DNA of 64,000 nt, taken from NCBI GenBank assembly GCA_963841605.1, contig CAWJDM010000016.1:2405-66404 (forward strand), given 5' to 3'. Under the pieces are notes generated by a model. That model ran no database searches. It saw only the letters and a program-made list of their open reading frames with translations, and was not told the DNA's origin. Of this stretch, positions 33,323 to 63,169 are shown piece by piece. The number at the start of each line of letters is the position of its first letter. The stretch's first letter is position 1. The DNA is from an uncultured Acidobacteriota bacterium. GTDB taxonomy: Bacteria; Acidobacteriota; Terriglobia; Acidiferrales; UBA7541. The translations under genes were made by a program, and so were the position numbers.

Positions 33323-33535
33323 GGTGGTTACCTCCTCGCAACGGCGGGCATCATACGCCAACCGGGTACGCAGAGACAAGCGTACGTCGATTCAAACTGG
33401 GAATCGCTGGAAGGGACCGGCTTTACCAGAACGGATACACGTGCGGTTGCCAGCGTTGACATTTGGAAGGTGCTTGGCAGAATGGGGCTACTCAGGGGAT
33501 GTCTGGAAGCTACCTGGAGCTGGGGAGGAACGACC

Positions 33536-39700: not shown

Positions 39701-40587
39701 CTCAACTTGTCGTCCGGGTGGCCGGATTCTTCCTCGCGATTCGGATTGCCGATCTCGCCCTTCTTTTCGCCGCCGCGCTCGAAGACGCGCAGGACGTTGC
39801 CGGGCTGCGAAATTTCCCACCGTTCGAGCGGGGCGATTTCCGGGAGGATGCCCTTGGCGCGCGTTTCCTCCGGCGTAGGAGGCGGCATCGTGAACACGGC
39901 CTGCGGCGTGCCGTCGGCCGAATAGCTCTCGCCGAAATGCGAATCCTTTAGAGGATACGCACCGTTGTTATAGAGGGCGGCGCCCCAGAGCAGGGAGCCC
40001 GTGGTCATCAGGCTGGTTTGCACGCGGCGGACTTCGCTCACGTGGCAGCCAGATTGGCCGCAGGTTTGCGGAGCGACGCGCAGATCGCCCGGATTGATGA
40101 ATCGAATGTAGTCATAGTTCTCGTGCAGCCATTCGGTGTAGGGGCGGACGGGATTCGCGGAGCTGCGCGCCCATTCGGGGATGGTGGACTTGGGATGCGC
40201 GCGATTTTTGGCGTCTTCGTACTGGGCGGAGCCCATCTGCGCGCCGGGAAGAACGTGAACGCTCGAATCTCCGCCGTGGCAATCGATGCAGGCGAGGCGG
40301 ACGGTGCCTGTCGGGTGCATCGTGGGCTGGTCCGTAGTCGTGTGGCAGCTCACGCAGCCCGCATTTTTTCGGTCGACATCCGCCTGGGATTGGCCCTCGG
40401 GGCTGGCCTGCAGCGCGTTTCTCTGCTGCGGCGGCTGTTGCGACGGCGGGGAATCTTCCGTTTGCGCACGCGATGCGGAATCTGCCACGAGCGCGAGACA
40501 CACGGCGGCGAGCAGCATCAGCAGCGGAAGAAACACACGCCGCGTCCGCCTGCTCGATCCGCGCATCGATTGGGCCAGAAAATCCAT
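36787..40587 (-). CDS. Secreted multihaem c-type cytochrome (9 CxxCH + 1 CX4CH) fused to a C-terminal LVIVD-repeat beta-propeller
   Basis: Signal peptide ([23 protein letters not shown]). Haem motifs CVSCH, CIDCH, CGQSGCH, CTACH, CMVCH, CIDCH, CIDCH, CYACH, CWGCH, CDDCH are spread over about 750 aa. The C-terminal ~400 aa carry LVIVD-type repeats ([68 protein letters not shown]). Confidence 0.85.
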
Positions 40588-43065: not shown

Positions 43066-43295
43066 CCCCTCGTGATCTCGCTTGGCCCGCGTCAGTTGCG
43101 AGTCGGGTAGTGCTTGGTTATCACAGTTCCCAAGGTCGTTCAAGCGCTAATCGGCCCGGAGAGTGTCCCGTTGCCCACAACGTTTCACGCGATAGCTGCA
43201 AGCTGCAGTCGTGCCGCCCGGAGAACCGAATCGGTGGAGCAATCGGCTGCAAGCGTAGTTTGAGAACCATCCCGGCTATGGTAAGAATAGGAGCC

Positions 43296-45407: not shown

Positions 45408-46814
45408 TTAGCCTTCGCGGAGCTTGTGGCTGGCCAGATTGCCGAGGCCGTCGTAGGCGGCGTACTTGTACATTTCCGAGAGCGTGGGGAAATTGAAGAC
45501 AAAGGCGATGAAGAGATCGATCGTGCCGCCTGCCTCAAGGACTGCCATTCCCGTGTGAATCAGCTCGGTGGCTTGTTCGCCGATGATATGAACGCCGAGC
45601 AGCTTGCGATCGTCGCGCCGGAAGAGCAGCTTCAGCAGCCCCGAGGTGTCGCCGACCATGGCGCCCCGCACGTTGTTTGCATAATGCGCGCGGCCAACTA
45701 CGTAGTCGATGTGATGCTCCCGGCAGGATTCTTCGCTTTCGCCGACAGCCGAAATTTCCGGAATCGTGTAAACGCCCATCGGAAGCTGCGAAGCGAGCCG
45801 CTTTTTGTAATCGAATCCGAAAGCGTGGCAGACGGCGACGCGGCCCTGCTCCATCGAAGTTGATGCGAGGGCGGGAAAGCCGATGACGTCGCCGGCGGCG
45901 TAGATGTGCGGGATCGAGGTCTGATACGACTCGTTGACGTCGATGTAGCCTCGCTGATTCAGCGTGAGCCCGATTTTTTCGAGGGCGAGGCCTTCGACGG
46001 TGCCGCGCCGGCCCGCGGCGAAGAGAACCGCGTCGGCATCGAGAATCTTTCCGGATTTGAGCTGCAAGCGCACGGCGCTCGAGGCGTGCTCGGTCTTGGC
46101 GACGCGCTCCTCGAGATAGCACTGAACGCCGAGCCCAGTCAGGCGCTCGCGCAAAAGCTTGCTCAATTCAGCATCGAGAAATGGTAGGAGACGATCGCGC
46201 CCATCGACCAGCGAGACTTTCACTCCGAGCGCCGTGAAGATCGAGGCGTACTCGCAGCCGATCACGCCGCCGCCCACCACGATCAGGCTTTGCGGCAGGC
46301 GGTCCATTTGCAAGATCGAGTCGGAATCGAAGATGGACTTGTCGTCGAACGGAATTTCGGCTGGGCGATGCGGGCGCGATCCGGTGGCGATCAGGATGAC
46401 GTCGCCCCGCAGCCGCTCCGGCGATTTCTTGGGAGACGCAACAGCGACCGTGTGCGGATCCTCGAAAGAGCCCGTGCCCCAGAAGACGTCGACGTGATGC
46501 GCCGCGAGATTCTTTTTGATTTCCTGGCGCTCGATTTCGACGAGAACGTTCTTGCGGTGCGTAAAACCCTCGACCGTGAGCCCTTCGCGCAAGGAATAGT
46601 CGATGCCGTATAGCCCGCGCTGCTTCAAGCCGGAAAAATAGAGCGCGGATTCGCGCAGGATTTTGCTGGGAATCGTCCCGGAATTAACGCACGCGCCGCC
46701 GGGCTCGGCCTCCGACTCGACGAGCGCGACACGTCTTCCGAAATACGCCGCTTGCGCCGCCGCCTTCTCTCCGGCCGGGCCGGAACCAATCACTACCAGA
46801 TCATAGGATTGCAC
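45408..46814 (-). CDS. sthA: Soluble Si-specific NAD(P)+ transhydrogenase
   Basis: YDLVVIGSGPAGEKAA FAD fold. GGACVNSGTIPSK has a single Cys, with Thr replacing the second redox Cys, as in SthA/UdhA and unlike lipoamide dehydrogenase CxxxxC. Second dinucleotide fold (LIVVGGGVIGCEYA). C-terminal dimerisation domain. Confidence 0.8.
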   Translation of the reverse strand: MQSYDLVVIGSGPAGEKAAAQAAYFGRRVALVESEAEPGGACVNSGTIPSKILRESALYFSGLKQRGLYGIDYSLREGLTVEGFTHRKNVLVEIERQEIKKNLAAHHVDVFWGTGSFEDPHTVAVASPKKSPERLRGDVILIATGSRPHRPAEIPFDDKSIFDSDSILQMDRLPQSLIVVGGGVIGCEYASIFTALGVKVSLVDGRDRLLPFLDAELSKLLRERLTGLGVQCYLEERVAKTEHASSAVRLQLKSGKILDADAVLFAAGRRGTVEGLALEKIGLTLNQRGYIDVNESYQTSIPHIYAAGDVIGFPALASTSMEQGRVAVCHAFGFDYKKRLASQLPMGVYTIPEISAVGESEESCREHHIDYVVGRAHYANNVRGAMVGDTSGLLKLLFRRDDRKLLGVHIIGEQATELIHTGMAVLEAGGTIDLFIAFVFNFPTLSEMYKYAAYDGLGNLASHKLREG

Positions 46815-46844
46815 AGGGCCTCCGAAATTCGGAATCGCATTCCA

Positions 46845-49544
<2,700 letters not shown>

Positions 49545-49550
49545 CGGTGC

Positions 49551-50951
49551 TCAGGGGAGCAGTGCGCTTACGTCGTGCATCTGGTGGGCGAAGCGGTTGG
49601 CATCGTAGCTCGACGGAATCTGCAATTGGTCGAAGAGCCCGGCGATGGCCGCGCGCACCTGCGGTGCGTTGGCAGGTTTCTCGTTGCGATCGTAGGCGAC
49701 GAAGAGCGATTGCAGAGCCATGGCCGCTTGCGCGGCGGCGTGTTCGTCCTGATTCGAAATGCTGTCGGCATCCGAGCAGATGCGCTGAAGGACGCGGAGC
49801 GTGAGCGCGCGATCGTAAGGCATCGTGTCGAATTTCGTGGCGAGTTGATCGGCAAGCTGCGCGGAAGTGGTTGCCGCAGCGGCCACGGCGTTGCGATCGG
49901 GGTTCAACGTGCTCATCAATTTTGTTACCTGCAAAATGTCGGAGTCGAGACTCTGCGCGTCCGCCGGATCGGCCTCGCGCACGATTTCGCGGAATACGAC
50001 GTAGCGCGAAGCATTCCAGGGAGGATCGCCGGGGCGGCGGTCGGGATAGCCGCGCGCTTGCCGCCAGCTCTGCTCCGCAGGGCCGAGCGAGTGATGGCAC
50101 GCGTAGCATTCGAGCTGCGAATATTCGGGCCAATTGGTGCTGCGAGTCTGATCCGCAAGCTGCAGGAGAGACTGGCGGAGCTGCACGGCTTGCCCCGCGG
50201 ACCATTCGCGGACCTCATACCACTGGTCGGTTCCTTCGGCTTCACCCGGTTCGCCGGGCTCGCTCCAGTGGCGGGGCATCGATGCGGAGAAGGAATCGAG
50301 CTCGAAGTAAAGATCGGGATGTCCTGCGGCGATCATTTGGTGATCGACAAACTTTTCCTTGCTGCCAAGATGGCAGGAGAGGCATTTGTCAGTGCGCAGA
50401 GCGACGTCGCGCAGGTCCGTCATGCCGGCCTGCACGGATTGCGCGTGCGTCCAATTGCGTTCGGTGTGATGGCCGAGCCATGCGGAGGCAGGTCCGTGGC
50501 AGCTCTCGCAGCTCACGCCCTCGCTGAGATCGAAGGTGCGGGCGCGGTCGGCAGCGGGCACATCCAGCGCGTGACACGCGAGGCATTTCGGCGCATTCTC
50601 GGCCTTGCCGATATTCAAGATCGCGGCCATGCGTTCGCCGACCATTCCGGTGAGCGCCTGATAGGCCTTCGAGTGCTTGTCGCGCACGATCCAGATGCTG
50701 TATTCGTTCTGCTTGACGCGATTGTCGGTGCGCGGGGCGATGCTGCCGTGGCAGCTGGTTGAGCTGCAGGATCCGGGCCCCGTGTATTGATGGGGCTCAT
50801 CGGCGGCGGGCTCGGCCGGGCCATTCGGCGGAGCGGCAAGCGCGCGGGATCGGAAGGCCGAAGGAAACACTGCGAGCGCGGCCAGCGCGGCGGCGAGCGC
50901 CAACGAAGCTCCGGCGAAGCGCGTCTTTGTTCCGTCCATCCTCAGTTTCAT
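49551..50951 (-). CDS. Secreted multihaem c-type cytochrome (4 CxxCH + 1 CX4CH) with helical non-haem C-terminal domain
   Basis: ORF 49551..50987 trimmed to Met13 (MKLRMDGTKTRFAGASLALAAALAALAV); Met17 is also possible. Motifs CSSTSCH, CLACH, CESCH, CLSCH, CYACH. 6 nt upstream of the GH63-like gene. Confidence 0.8.
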   Translation of the reverse strand: MKLRMDGTKTRFAGASLALAAALAALAVFPSAFRSRALAAPPNGPAEPAADEPHQYTGPGSCSSTSCHGSIAPRTDNRVKQNEYSIWIVRDKHSKAYQALTGMVGERMAAILNIGKAENAPKCLACHALDVPAADRARTFDLSEGVSCESCHGPASAWLGHHTERNWTHAQSVQAGMTDLRDVALRTDKCLSCHLGSKEKFVDHQMIAAGHPDLYFELDSFSASMPRHWSEPGEPGEAEGTDQWYEVREWSAGQAVQLRQSLLQLADQTRSTNWPEYSQLECYACHHSLGPAEQSWRQARGYPDRRPGDPPWNASRYVVFREIVREADPADAQSLDSDILQVTKLMSTLNPDRNAVAAAATTSAQLADQLATKFDTMPYDRALTLRVLQRICSDADSISNQDEHAAAQAAMALQSLFVAYDRNEKPANAPQVRAAIAGLFDQLQIPSSYDANRFAHQMHDVSALLP

Positions 50952-51218
50952 CTTCGGTTCAGCTGGTCGGAGCGCATCGCCACCCACGCGAGCGGCGACA
51001 AACCGCCTGAAATGTGGCTGTCTCGACGCTTATAGTATCGGCTTCCGTCGCAATGTCAACGACGAGGTCGGCCGGGTACAAGACATGTTTCCATATTCAG
51101 TTGGGCTGTGGACGGATTCGCGAGTCTTGCTATACACTCTTGCACGACTCGCCGTCTTGGCTGGTCTCGCAGTCGACTTGACACGGAATCGCCACAGACA
51201 TTCTGGGGAGAATACAGG

Positions 51219-52934
51219 TTGATCGTTCAGGAACTGAGAGCGGTCCAGTCCCAGTTTGGATTCCTGCCCGCCGATCAGCTTCAGGCGCTGGCCAAGAAGA
51301 TTAACGTCCCGATCACGCGCCTCCACCAGGTTGCCAGCTTCTTCCCGCATTTTCGTCTCACGCCTCCGCCGAAAGCGGACGTGCGCATTTGCCGCGACAT
51401 GTCGTGCCATTTGCGCGGCGGGGATCGCGTGCGGATGAACCTTGAGGAGCGATTCAAGGGCGCGAGCGAGCAGGAAGTGACGATTCGCGGCGTCTCGTGC
51501 CTGGGGCAGTGCGATCATGCGGTCGCGGTTTCGATCAACGACCGGGTATTCGCTCCGGCGGATGAGGCGCGCGTCGAGCAGATTATTCGCGACGTGCTGC
51601 TGCAGGGGGAATTGCCGCAAGCCGCCCACCGCGAGGCCGGCGTCGAGTGCGCGTCGAATCCATACGCGGGCGGCGAGCGATATGGCGCCGTGCGGCGGCT
51701 GGTGGAATCGCGCGGATGGAACGCGGCGCTCGAAGCGCTGAAGTCGGCTGGGCTGCGCGGGCTGGGCGGCGCGGGTTTTCCGACGGAAATGAAGTGGCAG
51801 CTAGTCCGGCAGCAGCCCGGAAACGAAAAATACATCGTGTGCAACGCGGATGAGAGCGAGCCGGGCACATTCAAGGACCGATTCATTCTGACCCACCTTC
51901 CTTTCCTCGTGATCGAAGGAATGATCATCGCGGGGCTCATTACCGGCGCGCGCAAGGGGATTCTCTACATCCGCCACGAATACGAGGCGCAGGAACACCT
52001 TTGCGAACAGGAGATTCGCCGCTGCTACGAGGCGGGCCTGCTGGGATCGAAGATTCTTGGCACGGATTTGGCGTTCGATCTCGAGGTTTTCGTCAGCCCC
52101 GGCGGATACATCTGCGGGGAAGAGAGCGCGCTGCTTGAGGCGATCGAAGGGAAGCGGGCGGAGCCGCGCAACAAGCCTCCGTTTCCGGGGCAGCAGGGCC
52201 TTTGGAACAAGCCGACCGTAATCAATAACGTCGAAACGTTTGCGCACGTCCCGCAGATTCTGGTGCGCGGCGTGGAGTGGTACAAGGCGCAGGGCGTCGG
52301 CGGAACGGCGGGACTGAAATTTGTTGGCGTGAGCGGCGATATCGAAAAGCCGGGCGTGTACGAGCTGCCAATGGGAACGCCGATGTCGGAGCTCATTTTC
52401 AAAAGAGCAGGAGGCGTGCGCGGCGGCAAAAAGTTGAAGGCATTTGCGCCTTCAGGGCCGTCGTCCGGCTATCTTCCGGCTTCGATGGTCGACGTGCATC
52501 TCGATTTCAAGTCGCTTGCGGATGCGGGCTCGATGCTGGGCTCGGGCGCTGTGGTGGTCTGCGCCGAGGGAACCTGCATGCTGGATATGGCACTGAGCGC
52601 GACGCAATTCTTTCGCAACGAATCCTGCGGCAAGTGCGTGCCGTGCCGCGTTGGCTCGCAAAAGATGGTCGATATTCTGGCGGGGTGGTCGCAGGGGCGA
52701 GGGGCGGAAGAAGACCTTGCGCTCGTGCAGGAGCTCTCGCAGTCGATGGTGCTGACTTCGATTTGCGGGCTCGGGCAAGTGGTGCCCGCGCCGATCGGCT
52801 CCGTGCTGAAATATTTTCGCGAGGAAGTTGAGGCGCATATCACGCGGCACGAATGTCCGTCGGGCATCTGTTTTTCTGATGCGCCCGCCCGCAGCGCGCC
52901 CGCAGCGGCCGCGGCTGTTCCGAGGTTGCTATGA
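51219..52934 (+). CDS. NuoE-NuoF fusion-type NAD(P)H dehydrogenase (FMN, 2Fe-2S, 4Fe-4S) subunit, HoxF/FdsB-like
   Basis: Start set at TTG 51219 (GGGGAG 8 nt upstream) within ORF 51108..52934. NuoE-like 2Fe-2S (CRDMSCHLRGG...CLGQCDHAVAV). NuoF FMN/NADH site (GLRGLGGAGFPTEMKW). N3 cluster (ESCGKCVPCRVG). Confidence 0.85.
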   Translation: MIVQELRAVQSQFGFLPADQLQALAKKINVPITRLHQVASFFPHFRLTPPPKADVRICRDMSCHLRGGDRVRMNLEERFKGASEQEVTIRGVSCLGQCDHAVAVSINDRVFAPADEARVEQIIRDVLLQGELPQAAHREAGVECASNPYAGGERYGAVRRLVESRGWNAALEALKSAGLRGLGGAGFPTEMKWQLVRQQPGNEKYIVCNADESEPGTFKDRFILTHLPFLVIEGMIIAGLITGARKGILYIRHEYEAQEHLCEQEIRRCYEAGLLGSKILGTDLAFDLEVFVSPGGYICGEESALLEAIEGKRAEPRNKPPFPGQQGLWNKPTVINNVETFAHVPQILVRGVEWYKAQGVGGTAGLKFVGVSGDIEKPGVYELPMGTPMSELIFKRAGGVRGGKKLKAFAPSGPSSGYLPASMVDVHLDFKSLADAGSMLGSGAVVVCAEGTCMLDMALSATQFFRNESCGKCVPCRVGSQKMVDILAGWSQGRGAEEDLALVQELSQSMVLTSICGLGQVVPAPIGSVLKYFREEVEAHITRHECPSGICFSDAPARSAPAAAAAVPRLL

Positions 52935-55102
52935 GCTCGACGCCCATCATCGACCTCACGATCGACGGCAAGAAAGTATCCGTGCCACAGGGCACGACCG
53001 TGTTTGACGCCGCCCGGCTGAACGGGATTGCGATTCCAACGCTTTGCCATCAGCAGAACGAGACGCCAGTGGGGGTTTGCCGCGTGTGCGTGGTGGATGC
53101 CGGAGGGCGCGTGCTGAGCGCCTCGTGCGTTCGCCCCGCCGAAAATGGCATGAACGTGAGCACGGCTTCCGACAAGGTGCAGGGCGCACGGCGCACGCTC
53201 GTCGAGCTGCTGATGTCCGATCACACGAGTCCGTGCGCGCGGCAGCAGCATACGGGCGATTGCGAGCTCGAAACGATGGCGCGTCAGATGGGCGTGACGC
53301 AGCCGCGCTTTCCGCGACGGTCGAGCGGGCGCACGAAGGATGATTCGTCGCCGAGCATCGCCGTCGATTTCGACGCGTGCATCTTGTGCGACCGGTGCAT
53401 CCGCGGGTGCAACGAAATCCGCCACAACGGCGTGCTGGGCCGCATGGGCAAGGGCGGAACGGCCGGCATCGCGTTCGATAACAACTTGCCGATGGGCAAT
53501 TCGTCGTGCGTGTCGTGCGGCGAGTGCATGGTTTCGTGCCCTACGGGCGCGCTGACGAACAAGATCGCCGCCGGGACGGCGTTTGCGGCGGGCGCGGGCG
53601 CCGATCACGTGAGCGTCGAGGAGCTCGAGCAGCTCAGCGTCTTCAAAGGTGTTTCGGGCACGTTCTTGAGTTTGAATCGGGGCGCGGTGGTGCGGCGAAA
53701 ATTCCGGCCCGGCGACGTGATCTGCCGCGAGGGCGAATACGGTTCGACGGCGTTTTACATCCTCGAAGGGAAAGTGCGCGTTTCGATTTCGAGCCCCATC
53801 GCGCACGTGAAAACCGGCGGCGGATCGCACGGATTGCTCAGCAAGCTGACGAGCGCGCTCGTACGGCGCAAGGAAGACCAGCGCGAGGAGGAGACGAGCC
53901 AGCGATTCATCCCGATTGATGCTCCCGTGGATCTCGCATATGAAAATCCCGTCGGGGAGCTGGGCCCTGGCGACCTTTTCGGCGAGATGACGTGCATGAG
54001 CCTCTATCCGCGTTCGGCGACCGTGCGCGCGGAGACGGATTGCACGATGCTCGAAATGCTGCGCAACGTGCTCGACATCCTGCAGCGCAACAAGAATTTC
54101 CGCGCGCAGCTCGAGAAATCCTACCGGCAGCGCGCGCTGGACAGCCACTTGCGCGGCATACCCGTGTTTGCGTCGCTGCCAGACGACTTTCTGGCGAGCT
54201 TGCGCGATCGCGTCGAGCTGGTGCGATACGGGCCGGGCGAGGTGATTTGCCGGCAAGGCGAGATCGCCAACAGCTTCTATCTCGTGCGCATCGGATTCGT
54301 GAAAGTGTCGCAAGAGCATCCGGGCGGCGAAATGGTGCTGGCCTATCTCTCGCGCGGCGATTATTTCGGCGAGATTGGATTGCTCGAAGGCGACGTGCGC
54401 ACGGCGACGTGCACGGCGCTCGATCACGTGGAGCTGGTGCGGATTTCGGGCGACGATTTCAGCGATATGGTGTCGAGGTTCCCGGAGATTCGCAGCAAGC
54501 TGCAGGCGGTGGAGCACGAACGGTTGCAGCAGAACCGGCAGCGGATGTCGCTGGTGCAGAGCTTGCCGCTCGATACGTTTCTCGCGCGCGGTTTGATGGA
54601 GGCGCAAAGCCTGCTGCTGCTCGATCTCGACCGCTGCACGCGGTGCGATGCCTGCGTGCGCGCTTGCGCGGATGCCCACGACGGAGTGACGCGGCTGGTG
54701 CGCGATGGGCTGCGCTTCGACCGCTATCTCGTGGCAACGTCGTGCCGGCAATGCCGCGATCCGCTGTGCATGGTCGGATGCCCCGTGGGCTCGATCCGGC
54801 GGCGAAATACGCTCGAGGTGATCATTGAGGATTGGTGTATCGGCTGTGGGCTGTGCGCGAAAAATTGCCCCTACGGCAATATCAATCTGCACCCGTTCGA
54901 GGTGATGACCGACGATCCGGAGCGGCCGGGACGCAAGAAGGCGACGGTGAGCCAGAAGGCGACCTCGTGCGATTTGTGCACCGAGCATGCGGAGCCGAGC
55001 TGCGTGTACGCATGCCCGCACGACGCGGCGCATCGCGTGGATCCAACCAAGTTTTTCGAGGGAATTCTAGGAGCGGGGCAGGCTGGGGCGCGCGACCGCT
55101 AG
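52931..55102 (+). CDS. Fusion: NuoG-N-terminal/HoxU-like FeS module + two cyclic-nucleotide-binding domains + four-cluster (DmsB/NrfC-type) polyferredoxin
   Basis: ATGA overlap with the upstream gene. aa 1-215: 2Fe-2S (CHQQ...CRVC...C), His-ligated cluster region (DHTSPCARQQHTGDC), CILCDRCIRGC and CVSCGECMVSCP. aa ~232-385 and ~405-515: cNMP domains with intact phosphate-binding cassettes (FGEMTCMSLYPRSATVRA; FGEIGLLEGDVRTATCTA). aa ~565-705: CTRCDACVRAC, CRQCRDPLCMVGCP, CIGCGLCAKNCP, CDLCTEHAEPSCVYACP. Confidence 0.85.
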   Translation: MSSTPIIDLTIDGKKVSVPQGTTVFDAARLNGIAIPTLCHQQNETPVGVCRVCVVDAGGRVLSASCVRPAENGMNVSTASDKVQGARRTLVELLMSDHTSPCARQQHTGDCELETMARQMGVTQPRFPRRSSGRTKDDSSPSIAVDFDACILCDRCIRGCNEIRHNGVLGRMGKGGTAGIAFDNNLPMGNSSCVSCGECMVSCPTGALTNKIAAGTAFAAGAGADHVSVEELEQLSVFKGVSGTFLSLNRGAVVRRKFRPGDVICREGEYGSTAFYILEGKVRVSISSPIAHVKTGGGSHGLLSKLTSALVRRKEDQREEETSQRFIPIDAPVDLAYENPVGELGPGDLFGEMTCMSLYPRSATVRAETDCTMLEMLRNVLDILQRNKNFRAQLEKSYRQRALDSHLRGIPVFASLPDDFLASLRDRVELVRYGPGEVICRQGEIANSFYLVRIGFVKVSQEHPGGEMVLAYLSRGDYFGEIGLLEGDVRTATCTALDHVELVRISGDDFSDMVSRFPEIRSKLQAVEHERLQQNRQRMSLVQSLPLDTFLARGLMEAQSLLLLDLDRCTRCDACVRACADAHDGVTRLVRDGLRFDRYLVATSCRQCRDPLCMVGCPVGSIRRRNTLEVIIEDWCIGCGLCAKNCPYGNINLHPFEVMTDDPERPGRKKATVSQKATSCDLCTEHAEPSCVYACPHDAAHRVDPTKFFEGILGAGQAGARDR

Positions 55103-55157
55103 GCGCAGTTTCATTAGGCCGCCGGAAACAACAGAATCGCCGCCACGGATTTCGAAC

Positions 55158-56045
55158 GTGCGCATCGATAGCACACATAAGAAGTGGCTGATCGCGTCGC
55201 TCATCATTTTCGTCGTGGCGACGGCGGTCTACATTCCCTACGCCGCGGCGTCTCCTTACGGGCCAAGCGGCGCGAGCGCGATCGGGCTTACATTTGGGAT
55301 TGTCGGCTTCGCGTTCATGATTTTTGCGGGGCTGCTGGGTGCGCGCAAACGGTTTCCCGTCTGGCGCGTCGGGCGCGCACAGGCATGGATGCGCGGGCAC
55401 CTGTGGCTAGGCGTGCTGAGTCTGCCGCTAATTTTCTTTCACAGCGGGTTTCGGTTTGGCGGACCGCTGACGGCCGCGCTGATGGTGCTGCTGATTGTGG
55501 TGGTGGTGAGCGGCGTGTTCGGCGCGGTGCTGCAGCACTATTTGCCCGCGGTGATGACCGAGCAGGTGCCGCTCGAGACGATCTTCGAGCAGATCGATCG
55601 CGTGCGAGGCCAGTTGCTCGAGGAAGCGGATCAGACAGTCGCCCGCGTGGTGGCGCTGGTGGCTCCTCTCGTGACGGCAACACCCACGCGCGTGGCGATG
55701 GCGACCGAGGAAGCTGCCGCAATCACGGAAGCGGATATTGCGCCACTGCGCGCGTTCTACGATCGCGAGATGCGGCCATTCGCCGAGAAACCGGATGCGC
55801 GTGGCTACGCGCTTGCGGACACGGCCAAGGCGCGAGCGATGTTTGCAGGGCTGCGCACGCTGATGCCGCCTGCGGTTCACGAATCCGTGAAAGACCTCGA
55901 GGATATCTGCGAGGAAGAGCGCGAACTGCGGCGGCAGGTGCGTCTCCATCACTGGCTGCACGACTGGCTGCTATTTCATATTCCGCTGTCGTTCGCGCTG
56001 CTGCTGCTGGGCGCGGTGCACGCCGTGATGGCGCTGCGGTACTGA
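55158..56045 (+). CDS. His-rich five-TM membrane protein with ~130-aa soluble helical insert (candidate haem-b carrier)
   Basis: GTG start. TM helices carry conserved-looking His residues (MRGHLWLGVLSLPLIFFHSGF; GAVLQHYL; LHHWLHDWLLFHIPLSFALLLLGAVHAV). No family recognised. Confidence 0.6.
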   Translation: MRIDSTHKKWLIASLIIFVVATAVYIPYAAASPYGPSGASAIGLTFGIVGFAFMIFAGLLGARKRFPVWRVGRAQAWMRGHLWLGVLSLPLIFFHSGFRFGGPLTAALMVLLIVVVVSGVFGAVLQHYLPAVMTEQVPLETIFEQIDRVRGQLLEEADQTVARVVALVAPLVTATPTRVAMATEEAAAITEADIAPLRAFYDREMRPFAEKPDARGYALADTAKARAMFAGLRTLMPPAVHESVKDLEDICEEERELRRQVRLHHWLHDWLLFHIPLSFALLLLGAVHAVMALRY

Positions 56046-56103
56046 GCCGCAGATGGCGGCGGTGTAGAGCGATTTTGCAATTGTTTCTGCTACGAGAGGC
56101 ATT

Positions 56104-57538
56104 GTGCCGCGAGAGAAGCGCACCACCAAAACCGTCGCGAAGCGCATCGACCTGAACTATTTCAAGCGGCCGAGCCCGTGGCGGCGGTGGCGCTTCGCGC
56201 TGTCGGTCGCGCTGCCGTGCCTGGCGGTAGCGTGGCTCGCGGCGTATGGCGTGACACGCAACAATCACGCGTACAGCAGCGGCAAGATGTCGCCCGCGCA
56301 CGCGGTGCTCACGCGGCAGTGCAATGCGTGCCATTTCTCGCGCGCGGGCTCCTTCCGCGCGACTGCGACCGATCAGGCGTTGCCTTGCGTGCCACGACGG
56401 GCCGATTCACCACGCGGGTCAGGTGTTCACGCCGAGCTGCGCATCGTGCCACGTCGAGCATCGAGGACGAATGCGCCTTGCGGCGACAGCCGATCAGAGC
56501 TGCACGCAATGCCACGCGAATTTGCGCACGAACGGCAAGGCAACGTCCTACGTGACCCACGTTACGGCATTCACTTCCGGGGGGCATCCGGAGTTCGCGC
56601 CTTTGCGCGCCGGGTTCCGCGATCCCGGAACGATCAAGCTCAACCATGCCATTCACCTGAAGGCCAGCCTCCTGGGACCGAATGGCACCCGAGTGCAAAT
56701 GACGTGCGATGACTGCCATCGCGCGAACGCCGCGGATCAATCCTGGAGATTCGGCGCGGCGCCGGCTTCGCAATCGCAGTCGCCTTCGTCGATGGCAGCA
56801 AACGCGACGGCGGGCGCGATGATGCCGGTTTCGGCGCCGCGCATGTTTCCGCCGTCCTATTCGCCGGCGCGCGCGTACATGCAGCCGATTTCCTATGCGA
56901 GGCACTGCATCGGCTGCCATCCGCTGCTTTTCGACAAGCGCTTCACCGATAGCGTGCCGCACGACACGCCGGAAGTGATTCACGCGTTTCTGGTGAAGCG
57001 ATACACGGAGTACATCGCGACGCATCCAGCGGAATTGCGGGAGACGAAGTCCACGATGGCGTTGCCGGCGAGACCAGTGCCGATTTCGCCGCGCATCTAT
57101 ACGCCGCCGGAATGGGTCAACACGCGCGTGGCCGAGGCGGAGAATCTGCTGTGGCGCAAGACCTGTAAAGAGTGTCATGCGCTGTCATCCCTGCCGAGCG
57201 CCCAGCCCGCTCCGATGATGCTGCCAGGGGCGTTGCCCAAAGTCGCGAAGTCGAATATCCCCGTGCGCTGGTTCCCGGACGCCGAATTCGATCACCAGGC
57301 GCACCGCGCGTGGACTTGCACCACCTGCCACCCGCGCGCGACGACGAGCCAGGAGACGGCCGATATTCTTGTGCCGGGTGAGAAGACGTGCGAGCAGTGC
57401 CATCACCCGGGCGCGGATGCAGCCGAAGCGCGCTGCTTCGAGTGTCACGCCTATCACGACTGGAGCCGCGAAAAGCCGGTGAAAGGCACGCCGCACTTTT
57501 CGTCGTGGATGCAAATTGCGCAAAGGCCGGCATCTTAG
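56104..57538 (+). pseudogene. Membrane-anchored decahaem c-type cytochrome, interrupted by a +1 frameshift (extra T at 56380/56381); could equally be a sequencing error
   Basis: Frame of ORF 56104..56712 gives an N-terminal TM anchor (WRFALSVALPCLAVAWLAAYG) and CNACH, then loses sense. Frame of ORF 56324..57538 carries CLACH, CASCH, CTQCH, CDDCH, CIGCH, CKECH, CTTCH, CEQCH, CFECH. Deleting one T of the TT at 56380-56381 joins them as ...ATDQACLACHDGPIHH... (477 aa). Confidence 0.7.
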
Positions 57539-57605: not shown

Positions 57606-58436
57606 CTAGATTCCCAGGAGATTTGTCTGCAGCTTGGTGTAGCCGTGCTCGGTGGCCCAGAGATTCAGCGGGATTGTGGCAAGTTCGTCGACGACAGGTA
57701 GCGCGAGGCCATTTTTCGACAGGTCGACGGTCTTGATGTAGCTGTGGCACGAGTCGCACGCCTCGACGCGCACGTGGCCAAACTCCTCCGCCGTGTAGAC
57801 GGCAAGTTTGTGCGGATTTTCCTCGCCGCACGACGGGCAAACGACGCGGCGATAATCCCATTCGTGGGCGCATAGCGCGCAGATCAGCGATCTCTTCGCG
57901 CCGTCGCCTTCCGGGCGCAAGACTCCCACCTGCGGTTTGGTGCCGCAGACGGGGCAGTGCGATGGCGTGGCGTGAATCGGGTATTGGCGCGTGTGGTCGG
58001 CAAGATACTCGGCGTAGGGTTGGAGAAAAGTCCAGGCGATTAGCTCTTCCGCGGCGTCGAGACCGGTCGCGCCATCTTCCTCGGTCCCGCTAGGTGCATC
58101 CTGCCAAAATCCGAGCAGCAAGTCCTGCAAGCGGCTCGCATCGCCGGCGCGCAGCTCGCGAGCGGTTTGCGCGAGCGGCGCGGGGGCATCTTCCTCGATC
58201 TGCGAAAGAAAGAACGGGAATAGCGGCACCAGCAGAGACGAATCAAATTCGCCGCGAAGCTTGCCCTGGGGCCGCGTGTGCATTTCCGCGCCGCAAGCTG
58301 CCTCGATTCGCGCATAGAGCTGCTTTTGGGCCTTCGCGACAGCGCGGTAAAAGAGCAGCCCTTCGGATGCAAAAGGGTGGCTCGAAGCGAGATCTTCCGC
58401 GCGGCGAATCCGCGCGTCCCATTTGGCGGGTTTCAT
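57606..58436 (-). CDS. fdhE: Formate dehydrogenase accessory protein FdhE
   Basis: ORF 57606..58493 trimmed to Met20, whose ATG overlaps the fdnI stop (tcat at 58433-58436). Four CxxC pairs (CPVCG, CALCAHEW, CPSCG, CDSCHSYIK) as in FdhE. Confidence 0.85.
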   Translation of the reverse strand: MKPAKWDARIRRAEDLASSHPFASEGLLFYRAVAKAQKQLYARIEAACGAEMHTRPQGKLRGEFDSSLLVPLFPFFLSQIEEDAPAPLAQTARELRAGDASRLQDLLLGFWQDAPSGTEEDGATGLDAAEELIAWTFLQPYAEYLADHTRQYPIHATPSHCPVCGTKPQVGVLRPEGDGAKRSLICALCAHEWDYRRVVCPSCGEENPHKLAVYTAEEFGHVRVEACDSCHSYIKTVDLSKNGLALPVVDELATIPLNLWATEHGYTKLQTNLLGI

Positions 58437-59104
58437 TTTCGCGACGAGGATTCGTTCTCGATTTTCTCGTACCACAGCCGATGGAAGGTCCACGCCCAGG
58501 CGCGCGTGACGCCTCCATGAATCATCGAAGCAAAGCTACCTTCTTCGAGCACCGTGCTCAGATAAACGTGAATCAGGAAGAGGCCGATCGTGATCAGCGC
58601 CACGCTTGCATGAACCAGAACCGCGGCATAGCGCAGAAACCGCAGGCTCCAGGGAAGCGTTTCCGTATACCACAGCACGACTCCCGAAAGCAGCATCAGG
58701 ATGGCGCCGTAGAAGATTCCCCAGAAGAAAAGCTTCTGTCCGTAGTTGAAGCGTCCCGCCGGCGGCACCTGGTCGTCTTCGTTCTTGATGTAGTGGGGCA
58801 TGGCTCTCGCCCACGTGCGATCGCTATCGTCGACTTGCATGTCGCCACGCCACTCCTTGAACGTCCAGAAGAGCGACGCCGTAAATATCAGGCCGAACCA
58901 TGGATGCCAGAACCGCGCCGTCGTCCCGCCGCCTACGATCGCCGTTAGCCAGAAGAGATAGGGAGACCAGAACGCGAGGCCCGTAAGCAGCAGATATATG
59001 TAGCTGAGTGCGCCGATCCAGTGATTGATGCGCTCGCCAAATGAATATCGCGGGATGATCTCGTCGTTGCGGCTGGCGGCGGTCGATACGGCATTAGTCG
59101 TCAT
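58433..59104 (-). CDS. fdnI: Formate dehydrogenase-N gamma subunit (dihaem cytochrome b556)
   Basis: RYSFGERINHWIGALSYIYLLLTG...ARFWHPWFG...VLVHASVALITIGLFLIHVY shows four TM helices with the haem-ligand His pattern. ATGA overlap with fdnH. Confidence 0.85.
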   Translation of the reverse strand: MTTNAVSTAASRNDEIIPRYSFGERINHWIGALSYIYLLLTGLAFWSPYLFWLTAIVGGGTTARFWHPWFGLIFTASLFWTFKEWRGDMQVDDSDRTWARAMPHYIKNEDDQVPPAGRFNYGQKLFFWGIFYGAILMLLSGVVLWYTETLPWSLRFLRYAAVLVHASVALITIGLFLIHVYLSTVLEEGSFASMIHGGVTRAWAWTFHRLWYEKIENESSSRK

Positions 59105-59991
59105 GGCCGCCTCCCATTATCCGATTGAATCTCTTCTTCTTTCTTCGGCCCGTAGCGCAAGTAGTGAACGGCGATTCCGAGCAAGCCTCCGATCATCGCG
59201 GCATTGCCGAGCCATTTCAGCGGCTTCTTCCAAAACTGCACGGACCACGGAATGCGCGGATCTTTCGGCAGGCCGCCATACAGCTCGGGATTCGACGCGT
59301 CGTGCAGGACGTAAATCACGTGCGTGCCGCCGACGCCTGCCGGATCGTAGACGCCCGCGTCGGCGAAATGCGACTGTGTGCGAAGTTGCTCCGCGCGCGT
59401 TTCCGCCAACTCTTTCATTTCGTTCTTGGTGCCGAAATGCAGGCAGCCTGTCGGGCACGCCTTGATGCATGCGGGCTCCAGCCCCTGCGACACGCGGTCG
59501 TTGCACAGCGTGCACTTGAATACTTTCCGCGCCTTCGGGCTGAACTTCGGGATGTTGAAGGGGCAGCCCGTGATGCAGTAGCCGCACCCGATGCAATTCG
59601 CCTCCTGAAAATCGACGATTCCGTTGGCGTACTGCACGATCGCGCCATCGGCAGGGCACGCCTTGAGACAGCCGGGATCCTCGCAGTGCATGCACTGATC
59701 CTTGCGCATCAGCAGCATCAGGCCGTGCTCGGGATCTTCGTGCTCGTTGAACTTGATCAGGTTCCAATAATTCCACGCCGTTTCGGGCATGGTCTGGTAG
59801 GTGTTGTCGAAGGAGGTTTCGGTGAATGGATACCCGTTCCATTCAAGGCAGGCCACTTCGCATGCTTTGCAGCCGATGCACGTGGTTGTGTCGACCAGCT
59901 TGCAGACTTGATATTCGCGGTTCAGGCCGGCGCCCGGGACGGGGCCCGCATGCCCTGAAATCCTGATTAGTTCCGTCGATGCCTGGCTCAT
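59101..59991 (-). CDS. fdnH: Formate dehydrogenase-N beta subunit (four 4Fe-4S clusters, C-terminal TM anchor)
   Basis: CIGCKACEVAC, CMHCEDPGCLKACP, CIGCGYCITGCP, CTLCNDRVSQGLEPACIKACP. C-terminal helix (LKWLGNAAMIGGLLGIAVHYL). Confidence 0.9.
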   Translation of the reverse strand: MSQASTELIRISGHAGPVPGAGLNREYQVCKLVDTTTCIGCKACEVACLEWNGYPFTETSFDNTYQTMPETAWNYWNLIKFNEHEDPEHGLMLLMRKDQCMHCEDPGCLKACPADGAIVQYANGIVDFQEANCIGCGYCITGCPFNIPKFSPKARKVFKCTLCNDRVSQGLEPACIKACPTGCLHFGTKNEMKELAETRAEQLRTQSHFADAGVYDPAGVGGTHVIYVLHDASNPELYGGLPKDPRIPWSVQFWKKPLKWLGNAAMIGGLLGIAVHYLRYGPKKEEEIQSDNGRRP

Positions 59992-60001
59992 CGTCCGCTC
60001 C

Positions 60002-63000
60002 CTATGCCTTCTCGACTTTTACTAGGAAGCCCTTGGATTCAGGGGTGTGCGCGTTCGGATCGGTCACGGAAGGAGTCAGCAAATTCGCCGGAGTACGCGC
60101 ATCGCGATCGGCATCCTCCTGGATCCCACGGAAGCCTTGATGAATCGGCAGTCCAATCTGGTAGACCTTCTTGCCGTCGATCATCATGGGTTTCAGCCGC
60201 TTCGTGACGAATGCTTTGGCAATGTAGGTCCCTCGCGCGCTGATCACTTTGATCTTGTCCGTCCCTTGAATCCCTTTTTCCTCCGCCAGCTCGACGGGAA
60301 TCTCGACGAAAGGCTCCGGGATCAGCTGAACGTTCATCGGATTGTTTTTCGTCCAGTAGTGATATTGCTCTGTCAGGCGGTAGGTGGTGCAGACGATGCT
60401 GTACTCTTCCGGCGTGCCGAATTTGTCGTACGGCGTCTTGAACTTTTTCACGAGCGGGTTCGTCGATTGGTTCGGGTGCAGCGGATTCTTGATCGGGCTC
60501 TCAATCGGTTCGTAATGTTCGGGGAACGGTCCCTCCGCCAGCACTCCAATGGGCGCGAACAATCGGCCCACGCCTTCCGGGTTCATGATGAACGGGCCCA
60601 GGTGGTCCTTCGGATGCGAGTCCGGCTTGAAGTCCGGCACGTCATTGCCGGCCCATTTTCCAGCCGCTTCGTTCCACCATACCTGCTTGCGCGTTGGATC
60701 CCACGGTTTGCCTTCGAGGTCGCAAGACGCGCGGTTGTACAAAACGCGCCGGTTGGCCGGCCACGACCACGCCCAGTTGGGATAAATGCCCAAACCGGAG
60801 GGATCTTCCGTGCCGCGCCGCTGAATCTGCGATCCGGCCTCGGTCCACATGCCGGAGTAAATCCAGTTGCCGCACATCGTGGTGCCGTCGTCCTTTAGCG
60901 ATGCAAAGCCGGGCAACTGCTGTCCAGCTCTGACCACCACCTGACCGGTCTTGTCGTCCTTCAGATCGGCCAGGGCTTTACCATTGAGCTCCATGGCGAC
61001 TTGCGAAAGCGACGGATGAGATGCGTCCGCGTAGGCCCAGCTTAGATTCAAAATCGGGTCGGGGAACTTGCCGCCTTCTTTTTTGTAAAGGTCGCGTACG
61101 CGCAGGAAAATCTGCGCCACGATATCCTGATCGAGCCGCGCCTCTCCCGGAGGCGGAACGGCGGCATATTTCCAAGTGACCCAGCGCGCCGAGTTGGTCA
61201 TGCTGCCGTCTTTTTCGGCGAAGCCGGCGCAGGGCAAGCGGTAGACCGTGGTCTTGATGTTTTGTTGTTCTTCGGCGGTGATGCCAGGAGCGCGCCAGAA
61301 TTCGCTGGTCTCGTCCGGATAAATTTCGCCCACCACCAGCCAGTCGGCCTTCTTGAGCGCGGCGATATTTTTGTTCGTGTCCGGGCCGATCATCACGCCG
61401 TTCATGCCAAAGGCGAACATGCCCTTGACCTTCCCGTTGTACATATCGTCCCAGATGTGGGTCCACGAATAATCGCGGTCGTACTTCGGAAGGTAATCGA
61501 ATGCGAATCCGTTTTCTTTGGTGGCGGCGTCGCCATAAAACGCCTTGAGCAGCGAGACCATGAATTTCGGCGTGTTCGACCAGTAGTTCATCGAATCCCA
61601 CACACCGGGCTTCGACGGCGTCGGCGTCGTCCGCTTGAGGAACGCGGCGAGGTCTGTGTCGGCCGGAACCGGCGCTTTCAAGTATCCGGGGAAGCTGTCG
61701 AAGAGGCCCGCCATGTCCGTCGCGCCCTGAATATTCGAATGTCCGCGGAGGGCGTTGACGCCGCCGCCCGCTCTGCCCACGTTTCCGAGCAGGAGCTGAA
61801 TCATCGCCGCCGTGCGGATGATTTGCGTTCCGAAGGTGTGCTGCGTCCAGCCGACCGCATAGATGATGGTGGCGACTTTCTTCATGTCGCCATCCTTGCG
61901 GATCGATGTGAAGAGGTCCACGGCATCCAGGAATTTGCCGCGGGGAATTCCCGTGATTCGTTCGACGGTTTCGGGCGTGTAGCGCGAATACTGCTGCTTC
62001 AGCAATTGGAAAACGCAGCGCGGATGCTGCAGCGTGAGGTCGTAGGCCGTATTCGGCGGAAGCGCCGGCGGAGCCGCGGCACCGGCTAGGGCGGCTGTGG
62101 CATGCCCGCCGGTATCCGCCTTGCCGGCCATGTCGCCGCCTGCCTCATAGTTCCACGTCGATTTGTCGTAGCTTTGCGTCGCTGCATCGAAGCCGGAATA
62201 GAGGCCGTCTTCAGGCAACTTGAACCCTTCCTTCACGATGAACGCGGCGTTCGTGTAATTGATCAAATACTCCTTCGCGATCCGGTTGTTGTCGATCGCG
62301 TATTTGATCAAGCCGCCGAGGAATGCGATGTCGGCGCCGGCGCGGATTTGGAGAAACCGGTCGGCGGTAGCGGACGTGCGGGTGAATCGCGGGTCGACCG
62401 AAATAATCTTGGCGTTGCGGTTGCGCTTGGCCTCGATCGCCCACTTGAATCCGCAGGGATGGTTTTCGGCGGGATTTCCGCCCATGATCAACATCATGTC
62501 GGTGTTCTTGATGTCGATCCAGCCATTGGTCATCGCGCCGCGGCCGAATGTTGGTCCCAAACTTGAGACCGTGGGGCCGTGTCAAACACGGGCTTGGTTT
62601 TCTAAATACACCAAGCCCATGCTCCTCATCGCCTTGATGGCCACATAGTTGAACTCGTTCGTGTCCGTGCAGCCGCCGATGAACGAAATCCCCTCGCAGC
62701 GGTTGACCGTATGCCCGTTCGCGTCCTTCTCCACGAAGGTATCGTCGCGGGTCTTCTTCGTCCACTGCGCGATTTCGTTGAGCGCGTCATCCCAGGAGAT
62801 GTCCTGCCATTCGGTTGCGCCGGGGCGGCGGACTTGCGGCTTGGTGAGTCGCCGCGAATTGAGGATGTCCTGCTCGAGCGAAGAGCCCTTCGGGCAGAGC
62901 GTTCCGCGGTTGGTCGGATGGTCGGGATCGCCTTCGACGTGGACCACCTGCGGCGTGACGTTCTTGGCGCCGTCGCCGATGGTGTAAATGAGGACGCCGC

Positions 63001-63169
63001 AGCCTACCGCGCAGTACGGACACGTCGAGCGCGTCTCCGTGGCTCGCGCAATCTTCAGCTCCTTCAGTTGCGCGTAGGCGGGCTTCAGATCGAAGCCCAG
63101 CACGGTGGCGCTCGCTCCGCCGATCACTGCAACCTTGAGGAAGGCTCGGCGCGTTACTTCCATCTGCAT
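60002..63169 (-). CDS. fdnG: Formate dehydrogenase-N alpha subunit, Tat-exported molybdopterin selenoprotein (in-frame UGA = Sec at codon 196)
   Basis: ORFs 62582..63169 and 60002..62560 are one gene. MQMEVTRRAFLK Tat signal and CPYCAVGCG FeS motif. ...LENQARV-TGA(62584..62582)-HGPTVSSLGPTFGRGAMTNGW... is colinear with E. coli FdnG ...DNQARVUHGPTVASLAPTFGRGAMTNHW (Sec196). Confidence 0.92.
62553..62570 (-). promoter_or_regulatory. Candidate SECIS hairpin for the fdnG UGA
   Basis: The minus-strand RNA GGUCUC-AAGUUU-GGGACC (6-bp stem including one G-U pair) starts 11 nt 3' of the UGA. Flanking GGCC...GGCC could extend the stem. Confidence 0.5.

Follow-up and report, generated by a model that had tools for sequence, protein, structure and literature searches.

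A ptd-type cluster of soil Acidobacteriota as a candidate cAMP-regulated route for electron export from NADH

A cluster of four genes, g1 to g4, lies at 51219-57538 on the + strand of a 64-kb stretch of DNA from a soil acidobacterium (hereafter "the window") and is best read as an NADH-fed variant of the putative ptd cluster, the core of which has already been named, the form fused to HoxF/HoxU-like (HoxFU) parts being new. The best explanation of its function, and one that we hold to be probable by a small measure, is that the locus provides cyclic AMP (cAMP)-regulated, NADH-oxidising electron export via a ptd-type transmembrane (TM) conduit, as suggested by domain content and synteny. An earlier description of this DNA (the original prediction) had proposed four co-directional genes in this interval, and all four were found there with the domains assigned to them; likewise present were the ATGA overlap of g1 and g2 (52931-52934) and the spacers of 55 nucleotides (nt) between g2 and g3 (55103-55157) and 58 nt between g3 and g4 (56046-56103). 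The four genes, with lengths in amino acids (aa), are:

51219-52934, + strand: g1, HoxF-like NuoE-NuoF fusion, 571 aa, with [2Fe-2S], flavin mononucleotide (FMN)/NADH and N3-type [4Fe-4S] sites
52931-55102, + strand: g2, three-part fusion, 723 aa
55158-56045, + strand: g3, five-TM membrane protein (PtdF-like), 295 aa, with a cytoplasmic helical insert of ~140 aa
56104-57538, + strand: g4, membrane-anchored decahaem cytochrome (PtdG-like), 477 aa once corrected, interrupted at 56379

Stretches encoding g2 relatives numbered at least 556 in species-representative genomes, and the best 80 of them (72-97% identity) were examined. Almost all of these 80 loci belong to soil Acidobacteriota (labelled Acidoferrales, Acidiferrales or Terriglobia), the four closest relatives being L001, L002, L003 and L010, with g2 97% identical to that of the window. 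Together with distant and metagenome loci, of which the distant ones were gathered via g3 relatives at 33-51% identity, 144 loci were fetched in total. Conservation of the gene order, which the original prediction had made a test of its proposal, was evident: g1-g2-g3-g4 follow one another in 77 of the 80 related loci and in L139, a metagenome-assembled genome (MAG) labelled Candidatus Rokubacteria that carries the g1-g4 set together with nonahaem and HbpS-like genes. Order and strand recur identically in 77/80 genome loci and also at distant metagenome loci, which puts the arrangement far outside what chance would produce. The full form, with HoxF and a HoxU-fused g2, was also present in L115, L116, L121, L124, L126 and L128, besides L139.

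A putative ptdABCDEFG operon has been named in marine Proteobacteria, Nitrospirales and Planctomycetes, and the cluster was noted in nitrite oxidisers (10.1101/2023.11.21.568154). Its products are described as a pentahaem cytochrome with a beta-sandwich (PtdA), the porin PtdB, an oxidoreductase binding FAD/NAD(P) (PtdC), a tetrahaem cytochrome (PtdD), a 4Fe-4S protein binding cyclic nucleotide monophosphates (cNMPs; PtdE), a membrane protein resembling ferric reductases (PtdF) and a decahaem cytochrome (PtdG) (10.1101/2023.11.21.568154). Compared by description only, a tetrahaem gene beside the cluster in the window, the C-terminal two-thirds of g2, g3 and g4 match PtdD-E-F-G in composition and order. 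Residues 226-723 of g2 contain, as does PtdE, cNMP-binding domains (Pfam cNMP_binding, 139 bits) and four Cys motifs; g4, like PtdG, has ten CxxCH motifs once an extra G is removed; and the tetrahaem, like PtdD, has four CxxCH motifs, a Cytochrome_C554 domain and a signal. The third gene could correspond to PtdF by its position after the PtdE-like part, its multiple TM helices and its His pairs, matches to Ferric_reduct (22 of 65 family members) remaining below threshold.

The window departs from the described operon in several respects. Its PtdE counterpart has an additional N-terminal HoxU-like module and is preceded by the HoxF-like g1. As for PtdC, it has the transhydrogenase SthA together with g1, where relatives have an NDH-2-like cNMP flavoprotein. 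Neither a pentahaem cytochrome nor the described porin accompanies the cluster, which has a nonahaem LVIVD cytochrome and a barrel-like CarboxypepD_reg protein instead; the only open reading frames (ORFs) of the window with at least four CxxCH motifs are the nine-, four- and ten-haem genes, none of them pentahaem. The hosts differ as well, the window coming from a soil acidobacterium rather than from marine Proteobacteria, Nitrospirales or Planctomycetes. The original prediction knew of no characterised system of such composition. On the HoxFU-fused form, nothing was found in the literature searched beyond the ptd preprint; the composition of the core had been named as ptdDEFG, if not characterised.

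The first gene starts with a TTG codon at 51219 behind a GGGGAG sequence. Its proposed identity as a NuoE-NuoF fusion was borne out by Pfam, with all domains above cut-off (2Fe-2S_thioredx 94, Complex1_51K 142, SLBB 30 and NADH_4Fe-4S 96 bits), while the NCBIfam model nuoF_fam scored 457 bits, under its equivalog cut-off of 558.65. The closest solved chains were HydB, HoxF and FdsB (E-values of 1e-118 to 1e-75), and 7e5z_B and 5xf9_A align with both the NuoE and the NuoF half. The motifs GGAGFPT, ESEPGTFKDR and ESCGKCVPC are intact (FMN, NADH, N3 and [2Fe-2S] sites).

All three parts ascribed to g2 were likewise recovered: a HoxU-like iron-sulfur (FeS) module (residues 1-225), two cNMP-binding domains (~226-555) and a four-cluster ferredoxin (~556-723). 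The N-terminal module matched Fer2_4 (65 bits) and, below the equivalog cut-off, the NCBIfam HoxU model (173 bits); among solved chains, HoxU and the N-terminal parts of HydA and FdsA could be aligned to residues 7-212, and relatives keep a [2Fe-2S] site and two CxxCxxCxxxC(P) motifs. Pfam also matched ferredoxin-type 4Fe-4S domains in g2. For the middle part, whose failure at profile thresholds would have counted against the original prediction, the score given above compares with a Pfam cut-off of 27.5 bits, and the canonical phosphate-binding cassettes are kept, reading FGEM[TS]C..PRSATV and FGE[IM]GL..R[TSN]ATC across relatives including short variants. Toward the C-terminus, conserved CxxCxxCxxxC(P) motifs near residues 568, 604, 636 and 680 fit four [4Fe-4S] clusters; the NCBIfam models HydN (51.7 bits) and DmsB (45 bits) were matched under their equivalog cut-offs, and no CCG domain was listed for g2 in the Pfam and NCBIfam scans. 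No variant, with or without the HoxU-like part, has lost either cassette or any of the four C-terminal Cys motifs.

As predicted, g3 encodes a His-rich protein with five hydrophobic segments. His81 and His95 lie on TM3 and His274 and His288 on TM5, each pair 14 residues apart. In an alignment of 65 sequences (36-57% identity), His81, His95 and His274 were invariant and His268 and His288 at least 90% conserved, and the pattern also held in a set 28-37% identical to that set's first member. The conserved His pairs that the original prediction had called for are, in other words, two in number and kept down to ~30% identity. The distribution of Lys and Arg residues (positive-inside rule) suggests a cytoplasmic location for the N-terminus, for the loop between TM2 and TM3 and for the TM4-TM5 insert. 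Such a His geometry is that expected for two stacked transmembrane b-haems, as in ferric-reductase/NOX domains, and the proposal that g3 binds two haems is well motivated on this ground.

In NOX and other ferric-reductase-domain proteins, as in Fre-MsrQ, a cytoplasmic NAD(P)H flavoprotein passes electrons via two b-haems to an outside acceptor with no quinone involved, and the b-haems of NOX-type proteins are held by His pairs on TM3 and TM5, the members of a pair being spaced by ~13-14 residues. The third gene product shares this His geometry and topology, and the weak Ferric_reduct matches in its family point the same way. It differs in having five rather than six TM helices, in a TM4-TM5 insert that reaches 140-700 aa in the family and in lacking an FNR-type dehydrogenase domain; the predicted donor is an FeS chain and not a flavin. 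Neither membership of PF01794 (at the Pfam cut-off) nor fold likeness to solved NOX, STEAP or MsrQ (Foldseek against PDB) was detected for g3.

Across the 65 family members, sub-threshold Pfam matches were to DUF4405 (24), Ferric_reduct (22; best E-value 2.8e-4) and Ni_hydr_CYTB (11), all of them dihaem-b families, any other Pfam family being matched by at most three members; none of the 65 passed a Pfam cut-off. The family is large: a search of 1.84 billion cluster representatives gave 2658 matches with E <= 1e-3, of which 485 had E <= 1e-30. Its members range from ~240 to 880 aa because the TM4-TM5 segment varies in length, and ten distant relatives carry only the annotation "hypothetical protein". 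The g3 family is thus a large membrane-protein family without a Pfam family or a PDB fold match.

A four-cluster FeS protein on a dihaem-b anchor is also the standard quinone-coupling dimer, known from the formate dehydrogenase FDH-N and from nitrate reductase. By analogy, g3 and/or g4 might exchange electrons with the menaquinone pool in the manner of FdnI, NarI, CbcL or CymA, the cluster then acting as a non-pumping NADH:quinone reductase plus a quinol:cytochrome c oxidoreductase. Besides this shared layout, the weak matches of g3 to Ni_hydr_CYTB would suit such an exchange, as would the NDH-2-like flavoprotein of short variants, a member of a family that normally reduces quinone, and the architecture of g4, in which a TM anchor is followed by four closely spaced haems as in NapC/NirT. 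Against it, a profile comparison (hhalign) between the g3 family and FdnI of the window returned a probability of 0.8%, the Ni_hydr_CYTB cut-off was reached by no member, and Ferric_reduct or DUF4405 was matched at least as often; g4 had no Cytochrom_NNT (NapC/NirT) match at E <= 0.01, and an NrfD- or NuoH-type quinone module is absent from the gene island around the cluster. We consider quinone coupling unlikely, while giving it some weight. A related layout, with a periplasmic multihaem cytochrome c, a membrane cytochrome b and a cytoplasmic FeS protein, is found in the Tmc and Hmc complexes of sulfate reducers, whose cytoplasmic subunit is an HdrD-like CCG protein. The cluster is alike in these three layers; Tmc and Hmc differ in having neither an NADH dehydrogenase module nor cNMP domains, and homology of their membrane subunit to g3 was not detected.

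The last gene of the cluster had been predicted to encode a membrane-anchored protein with ten CxxCH motifs. Ten motifs and a single N-terminal TM helix are there, but not in a single ORF: ORF 56104-56712 (frame 1) encodes the anchor and haem 1, ORF 56324-57538 (frame 2) haems 2-10, and the two join only upon removal of an extra G at 56379 (CAGGC[G]TTGCC). This G is not in a homopolymer and is absent from L001, L002, L003 and L010. Once corrected, g4 starts with a strongly basic N-terminus and combines a single TM helix with all ten motifs. Because assemblies of the same kind show local collapses of identity (L002 in g3 and g4, L010 in FdnI), an assembly error is plausible, the alternative being a real pseudogene. 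Homologues of g4 with 9-10 CxxCH motifs come after g3 in distant loci, with ten in L099, L107, L089, L103 and L105.

The distant loci further delimit what belongs together. A trio recurred in them, consisting of a cNMP plus four-cluster ferredoxin of 516-645 aa that has no HoxU part, a g3 homologue and a cytochrome with 9-10 haems; such stand-alone cNMP-ferredoxins precede g3 homologues in L099, L107, L129, L131, L138, L140 and L141. In two of the closer loci (L021 and L022), g1-g2-g3 and a CHASE2-domain cyclase are kept, the decahaem and tetrahaem genes having been lost together. From these patterns, the conserved core is the cNMP four-cluster ferredoxin, the putative dihaem-type membrane protein, the decahaem and the divergently encoded tetrahaem. 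The HoxF/HoxU-like NADH module is an add-on, present in a subset of clusters only. Input from NAD(P)H is nonetheless a recurring theme: the window type has the HoxF/HoxU-like module and SthA, and short variants have an NDH-2-like cNMP flavoprotein (Pyr_redox_2 + NDH2_C + cNMP), which lies beside the tetrahaem in L129 (5108-6757), L141 (5255-6889) and L143. The wiring initially proposed, including an NADH dehydrogenase, remains the best reading of the window, with the amendment that the NADH module stands outside the conserved core.

In fusing NuoE and NuoF, g1 resembles HoxF and the formate dehydrogenase (FDH) beta subunit. The cluster differs from HoxFU, FdsBG and NuoEFG in that the HoxU-like part of g2 continues, as one fusion protein, into cNMP domains and a four-cluster ferredoxin, and in that the window provides these proteins with no hydrogenase, FDH or quinone-module partner. 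Since g1 and the g2 N-terminus are most similar to HydB/HoxF/FdsB and HydA/FdsA/HoxU, they could in principle form an ordinary diaphorase, that is, the NAD-linked subunits of a neighbouring FDH or of a hydrogenase encoded elsewhere. The original prediction had stated that no Mo enzyme is encoded, which is true of g1-g4 themselves; an operon for a selenocysteine FDH does, however, start 68 nt downstream of g4:

57606-63169, - strand: complete FDH-N/O-type operon FdhE-FdnI-FdnH-FdnG(Sec), convergent with g4

The FdnG gene has an in-frame TGA selenocysteine codon, and Rfam SECIS_3 was matched at 62529-62587 (67.7 bits). Several observations speak against a diaphorase. The neighbouring enzyme is a periplasmic, cytochrome-b-anchored FDH-N that comes with an FdnH and an FdnI of its own, it is convergently encoded, and it was ruled out as the catalytic partner of g1-g4 since it adjoins the cluster in only 4 of the 80 loci, those with g2 97% identical. 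Signatures of [NiFe] or [FeFe] hydrogenases were absent from six-frame scans of all 144 loci, and g2 is fused to a PtdE-like part, with g3 and g4 always next. As the original prediction had anticipated, neither enzyme is an obligatory neighbour. On the strength of the FDH and hydrogenase counts the diaphorase was rejected, and we regard it as almost certainly wrong.

The original prediction of a four-gene unit held insofar as g1-g4 are conserved together, and fell short insofar as the unit is larger, taking in the tetrahaem, the nonahaem with its barrel-like partner, SthA, an HbpS-like protein and a cyclase. The four genes belong to a 24-kb island (33.5-57.5 kb) that begins near 33.5 kb and comprises, upstream of g1:

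33524-34222 (inside ORF 32453-34342), + strand: FecR-domain protein, usual partner of the cyclase (Pfam FecR 63.7 bits)
34371-36731, + strand: CHASE2-domain class III nucleotidyl cyclase, 786 aa (Pfam CHASE2 200.7, Guanylate_cyc 92 bits)
36787-40587, - strand: LVIVD-repeat nonahaem cytochrome of the c type, 1266 aa (9 CxxCH; Pfam LVIVD 65.8 bits)
40600-43143, - strand: CarboxypepD_reg-domain protein (Pfam CarboxypepD_reg 66.3 bits; C-terminus ...TDIRFQF)
43245-44909 (start approximate), + strand: HbpS-like (PF03928) protein, ~554 aa (Pfam 73.8 bits)
45408-46814, - strand: SthA soluble pyridine-nucleotide transhydrogenase, 468 aa (NCBIfam NF003585 586.6 bits, equivalog cut-off 465)
49551-50987, - strand: periplasmic tetrahaem cytochrome (PtdD-like), divergent from g1
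50988-51218, no strand: intergenic (promoter) region separating g1 from the divergent tetrahaem gene, with one sigma-70-like consensus match per strand

The window cyclase is 72% identical to a cyclase that lies directly after g4, in convergent orientation, in 31 of the 80 related loci; the FecR-domain gene comes after the cyclase in 30 related loci, and its copy in the window was found by tblastn. The cyclase carries the motif DKYIGDA, in which the lysine of KxIGD would suggest the adenine type (cAMP). The CHASE2 cyclase is a candidate source of the cNMP signal for g2, and among the indirect arguments for genuine control by cNMPs, its synteny with the cluster is the strongest.

The CarboxypepD_reg gene, immediately upstream of that of the nonahaem and likewise on the - strand, encodes a probable outer-membrane beta-barrel. 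Nonahaem homologues adjoin the cluster in 38/80 genome loci and in L103, L108, L109, L116, L124, L126, L139 and L141, and the two genes occur as a pair in 38-39 genome loci and six metagenome loci (L103, L108, L109, L116, L124 and L126). The tetrahaem, which has four CxxCH motifs, a CSSTSCH motif, an N-terminal hydrophobic signal and a Cytochrome_C554 score of 39.7 bits, is encoded upstream of g1 in 71 of the 80 loci, most exceptions being truncated contigs. In the window and in 16/80 relatives, a GH63/MGH1-like glycoside hydrolase gene (46845-49544, - strand, in the window) stands between SthA and the tetrahaem; such a gene also follows directly after the decahaem gene in L143 (3293-6118), making it an odd recurrent neighbour of a redox cluster. 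SthA (Si-specific NAD(P)+ transhydrogenase) adjoins the tetrahaem gene in 38/80 loci, where both share a strand, and is present in L115 and L125, too. Promoter and terminator consensus scans performed no better than shuffles, the count of sigma-70-like matches not exceeding the shuffle expectation.

Two long ORFs were discarded. A 1336-aa ORF upstream of g1 (46752-50762, + strand) is an antisense artefact, the real genes there being those of the GH63-like protein and the tetrahaem on the - strand, and a 1283-aa ORF in L124, considered as a g1-g2 fusion protein, was rejected on finding its first ~570 codons out of frame. In DNA of 61-64% G+C, long antisense or wrong-frame ORFs give seemingly conserved tblastn matches and mimic large proteins or fusions (window 46752-50762; L124:6145-9996).

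Genes for HbpS-like proteins, of a family known from a haem/redox sensor, travel with the cluster across phyla. They lie near it in 45/80 loci, directly after g4 in the Rokubacteria-labelled L139 (12643-14211) and, in L105 (7115-9988), directly before the g3 homologue in replacement of the cNMP-ferredoxin; the proteins are 520-960 aa long, with the HbpS-like domain C-terminal and the N-terminal part belonging to no family. Their linkage to the cluster, along with that of the CHASE2 cyclase and the FecR-domain protein, would be compatible with a redox-signalling device in which the haem/FeS chain reports the periplasmic redox state and cNMP and FHA domains serve as the signalling interface. Consistent with this idea, the ferredoxin is invariably fused to regulatory domains, comprising two cNMP domains in all variants, with two FHA domains ahead of these in L098 (7677-10004) and one FHA domain in L103 (296-3778), and the NDH-2-like partner has a cNMP domain as well. 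Yet no output domain (DNA-binding, kinase or GGDEF) was seen fused to any component, cNMP-binding domains normally receive rather than emit signals, and ten plus four plus nine haems and a complete NADH dehydrogenase would be a large investment for a sensor. We judge a purely signalling role quite improbable.

For the preferred explanation, electron export from NADH, the following path is conceivable. NADH would be oxidised at the FMN of the HoxF-like g1, and electrons would pass via the HoxU-like clusters in the g2 N-terminus to the four C-terminal [4Fe-4S] clusters of the protein. This ferredoxin part would dock onto the cytoplasmic helical insert of g3, the membrane being crossed via two stacked b-haems, of which one would be held by His81/His274 on the cytoplasmic side and one by His95/His288 on the periplasmic side. 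In the periplasm, the membrane-anchored decahaem g4 would collect the electrons, which may travel on to the tetrahaem, from there to the nonahaem LVIVD cytochrome with its barrel-like partner, and finally to acceptors outside the cell, for instance Fe(III) or humic substances. The two cNMP-binding domains between the FeS modules of g2 would gate the chain upon cAMP supplied by the syntenic CHASE2 cyclase, and SthA could channel NADPH-derived reducing power into the NADH pool. The domains, the conserved ligands and motifs and the linkage of the genes are observed; complex formation, haem binding, flow direction, quinone independence and cAMP gating are what we infer from sequence in this scheme. 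No proton-pumping module and none that consumes proton-motive force or bifurcates electrons was found in the pathway, which would therefore be a regulated, NAD+-regenerating valve for electron export and not an energy-conserving substitute for complex I; for a pathway that regenerates NAD+ rather than conserving energy, tight regulation would be sensible.

The same chain might be run inward, from Fe(II), reduced humics or a cathode via the cytochromes and g3 to the reduction of NAD+. HoxFU-type modules are reversible in NAD-reducing hydrogenases. In addition, the ptd cluster has been noted in nitrite oxidisers (10.1101/2023.11.21.568154), a group that depends on reverse electron flow, and the lineage has been described as an Fe "cycler" (PMC7980381). 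Transfer from high-potential donors to NAD+ (-320 mV), with electrons leaving the positive side of the membrane for the negative one, requires an energy input, however, and besides the absence of a driving module already mentioned, g1 does not have the extra C-terminal ferredoxin domain of bifurcating HydB. Inward flow thus appears very improbable.

Several observations weigh against electron export as proposed. The authors who named the ptd cluster called its function "completely unknown" (10.1101/2023.11.21.568154). Many relatives do without the NADH module, which argues that the core does not depend on it. Within g2, a cNMP stretch of ~330 residues parts the two FeS modules, so that a continuous tunnelling chain is not assured. 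Moreover, its N5-like site (residues 98-111; window 53222-53263) reads H-x3-C-x8-C in all full-length relatives, as opposed to H-x3-C-x2-C-x5-C for N5 of NuoG, and NADH-G_4Fe-4S_3 scored 26.6 bits versus a cut-off of 27; short of the second Cys of the NuoG pattern, this cluster may be absent or unusually ligated. Haem binding by g3 is argued from its His pattern, given that the protein reached no family threshold (best Pfam match Ni_hydr_CYTB, 22.7 bits, cut-off 30.1), that PDB profile searches with two g3-family alignments returned nothing, and that Foldseek of two AF2 models against PDB (predicted local distance difference test score, pLDDT, of 69, and of 82 with a deeper alignment) gave no match at E < 0.3. 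A quinone site on g3 or g4 is possible. Finally, the frameshift of g4 means that the pathway may be broken in the window genome itself. A fuller version of the proposal, in which the locus encodes a quinone-independent, cAMP-gated NADH:extracellular-acceptor oxidoreductase that spans the envelope via a structurally unprecedented family of dihaem membrane proteins, is for us a tentative possibility, to be entertained rather than assumed.

Known routes of extracellular electron transfer (EET) exit the inner membrane via the quinol pool, CymA, ImcH, CbcL and CbcBA being inner-membrane quinol oxidases and Mtr/Pcc outer-membrane porin-cytochrome complexes. The cluster is like these systems in that an anchored multihaem cytochrome, by itself or together with a dihaem b, would feed multihaems of the periplasm and outer membrane and in that the island has a large multihaem beside a probable barrel. 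It is unlike the quinol oxidases in drawing, by prediction, on a cytoplasmic NADH dehydrogenase and an FeS chain, and g4 has no NapC/NirT match. If true, a path from NADH via FeS clusters and a dihaem protein to multihaems would be a different solution from EET through the quinol pool, with a bacterial NOX-like system as its nearest analogue, and it would be unusual for an electron-transfer subunit to contain a second-messenger switch. Its carriers, the Acidoferrales, are soil Acidobacteria that are abundant, uncultured and, on account of their multihaem cytochromes, proposed as Fe(III) cyclers (PMC7980381), and the cluster is a concrete candidate for the route by which these proposed Fe(III) reducers might reduce it. 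Beyond soil, the proposal would be the first hypothesis on mechanism for the ptd cluster, so far uncharacterised, of marine bacteria and nitrite oxidisers, and g3 defines a large membrane-protein family without structural precedent.

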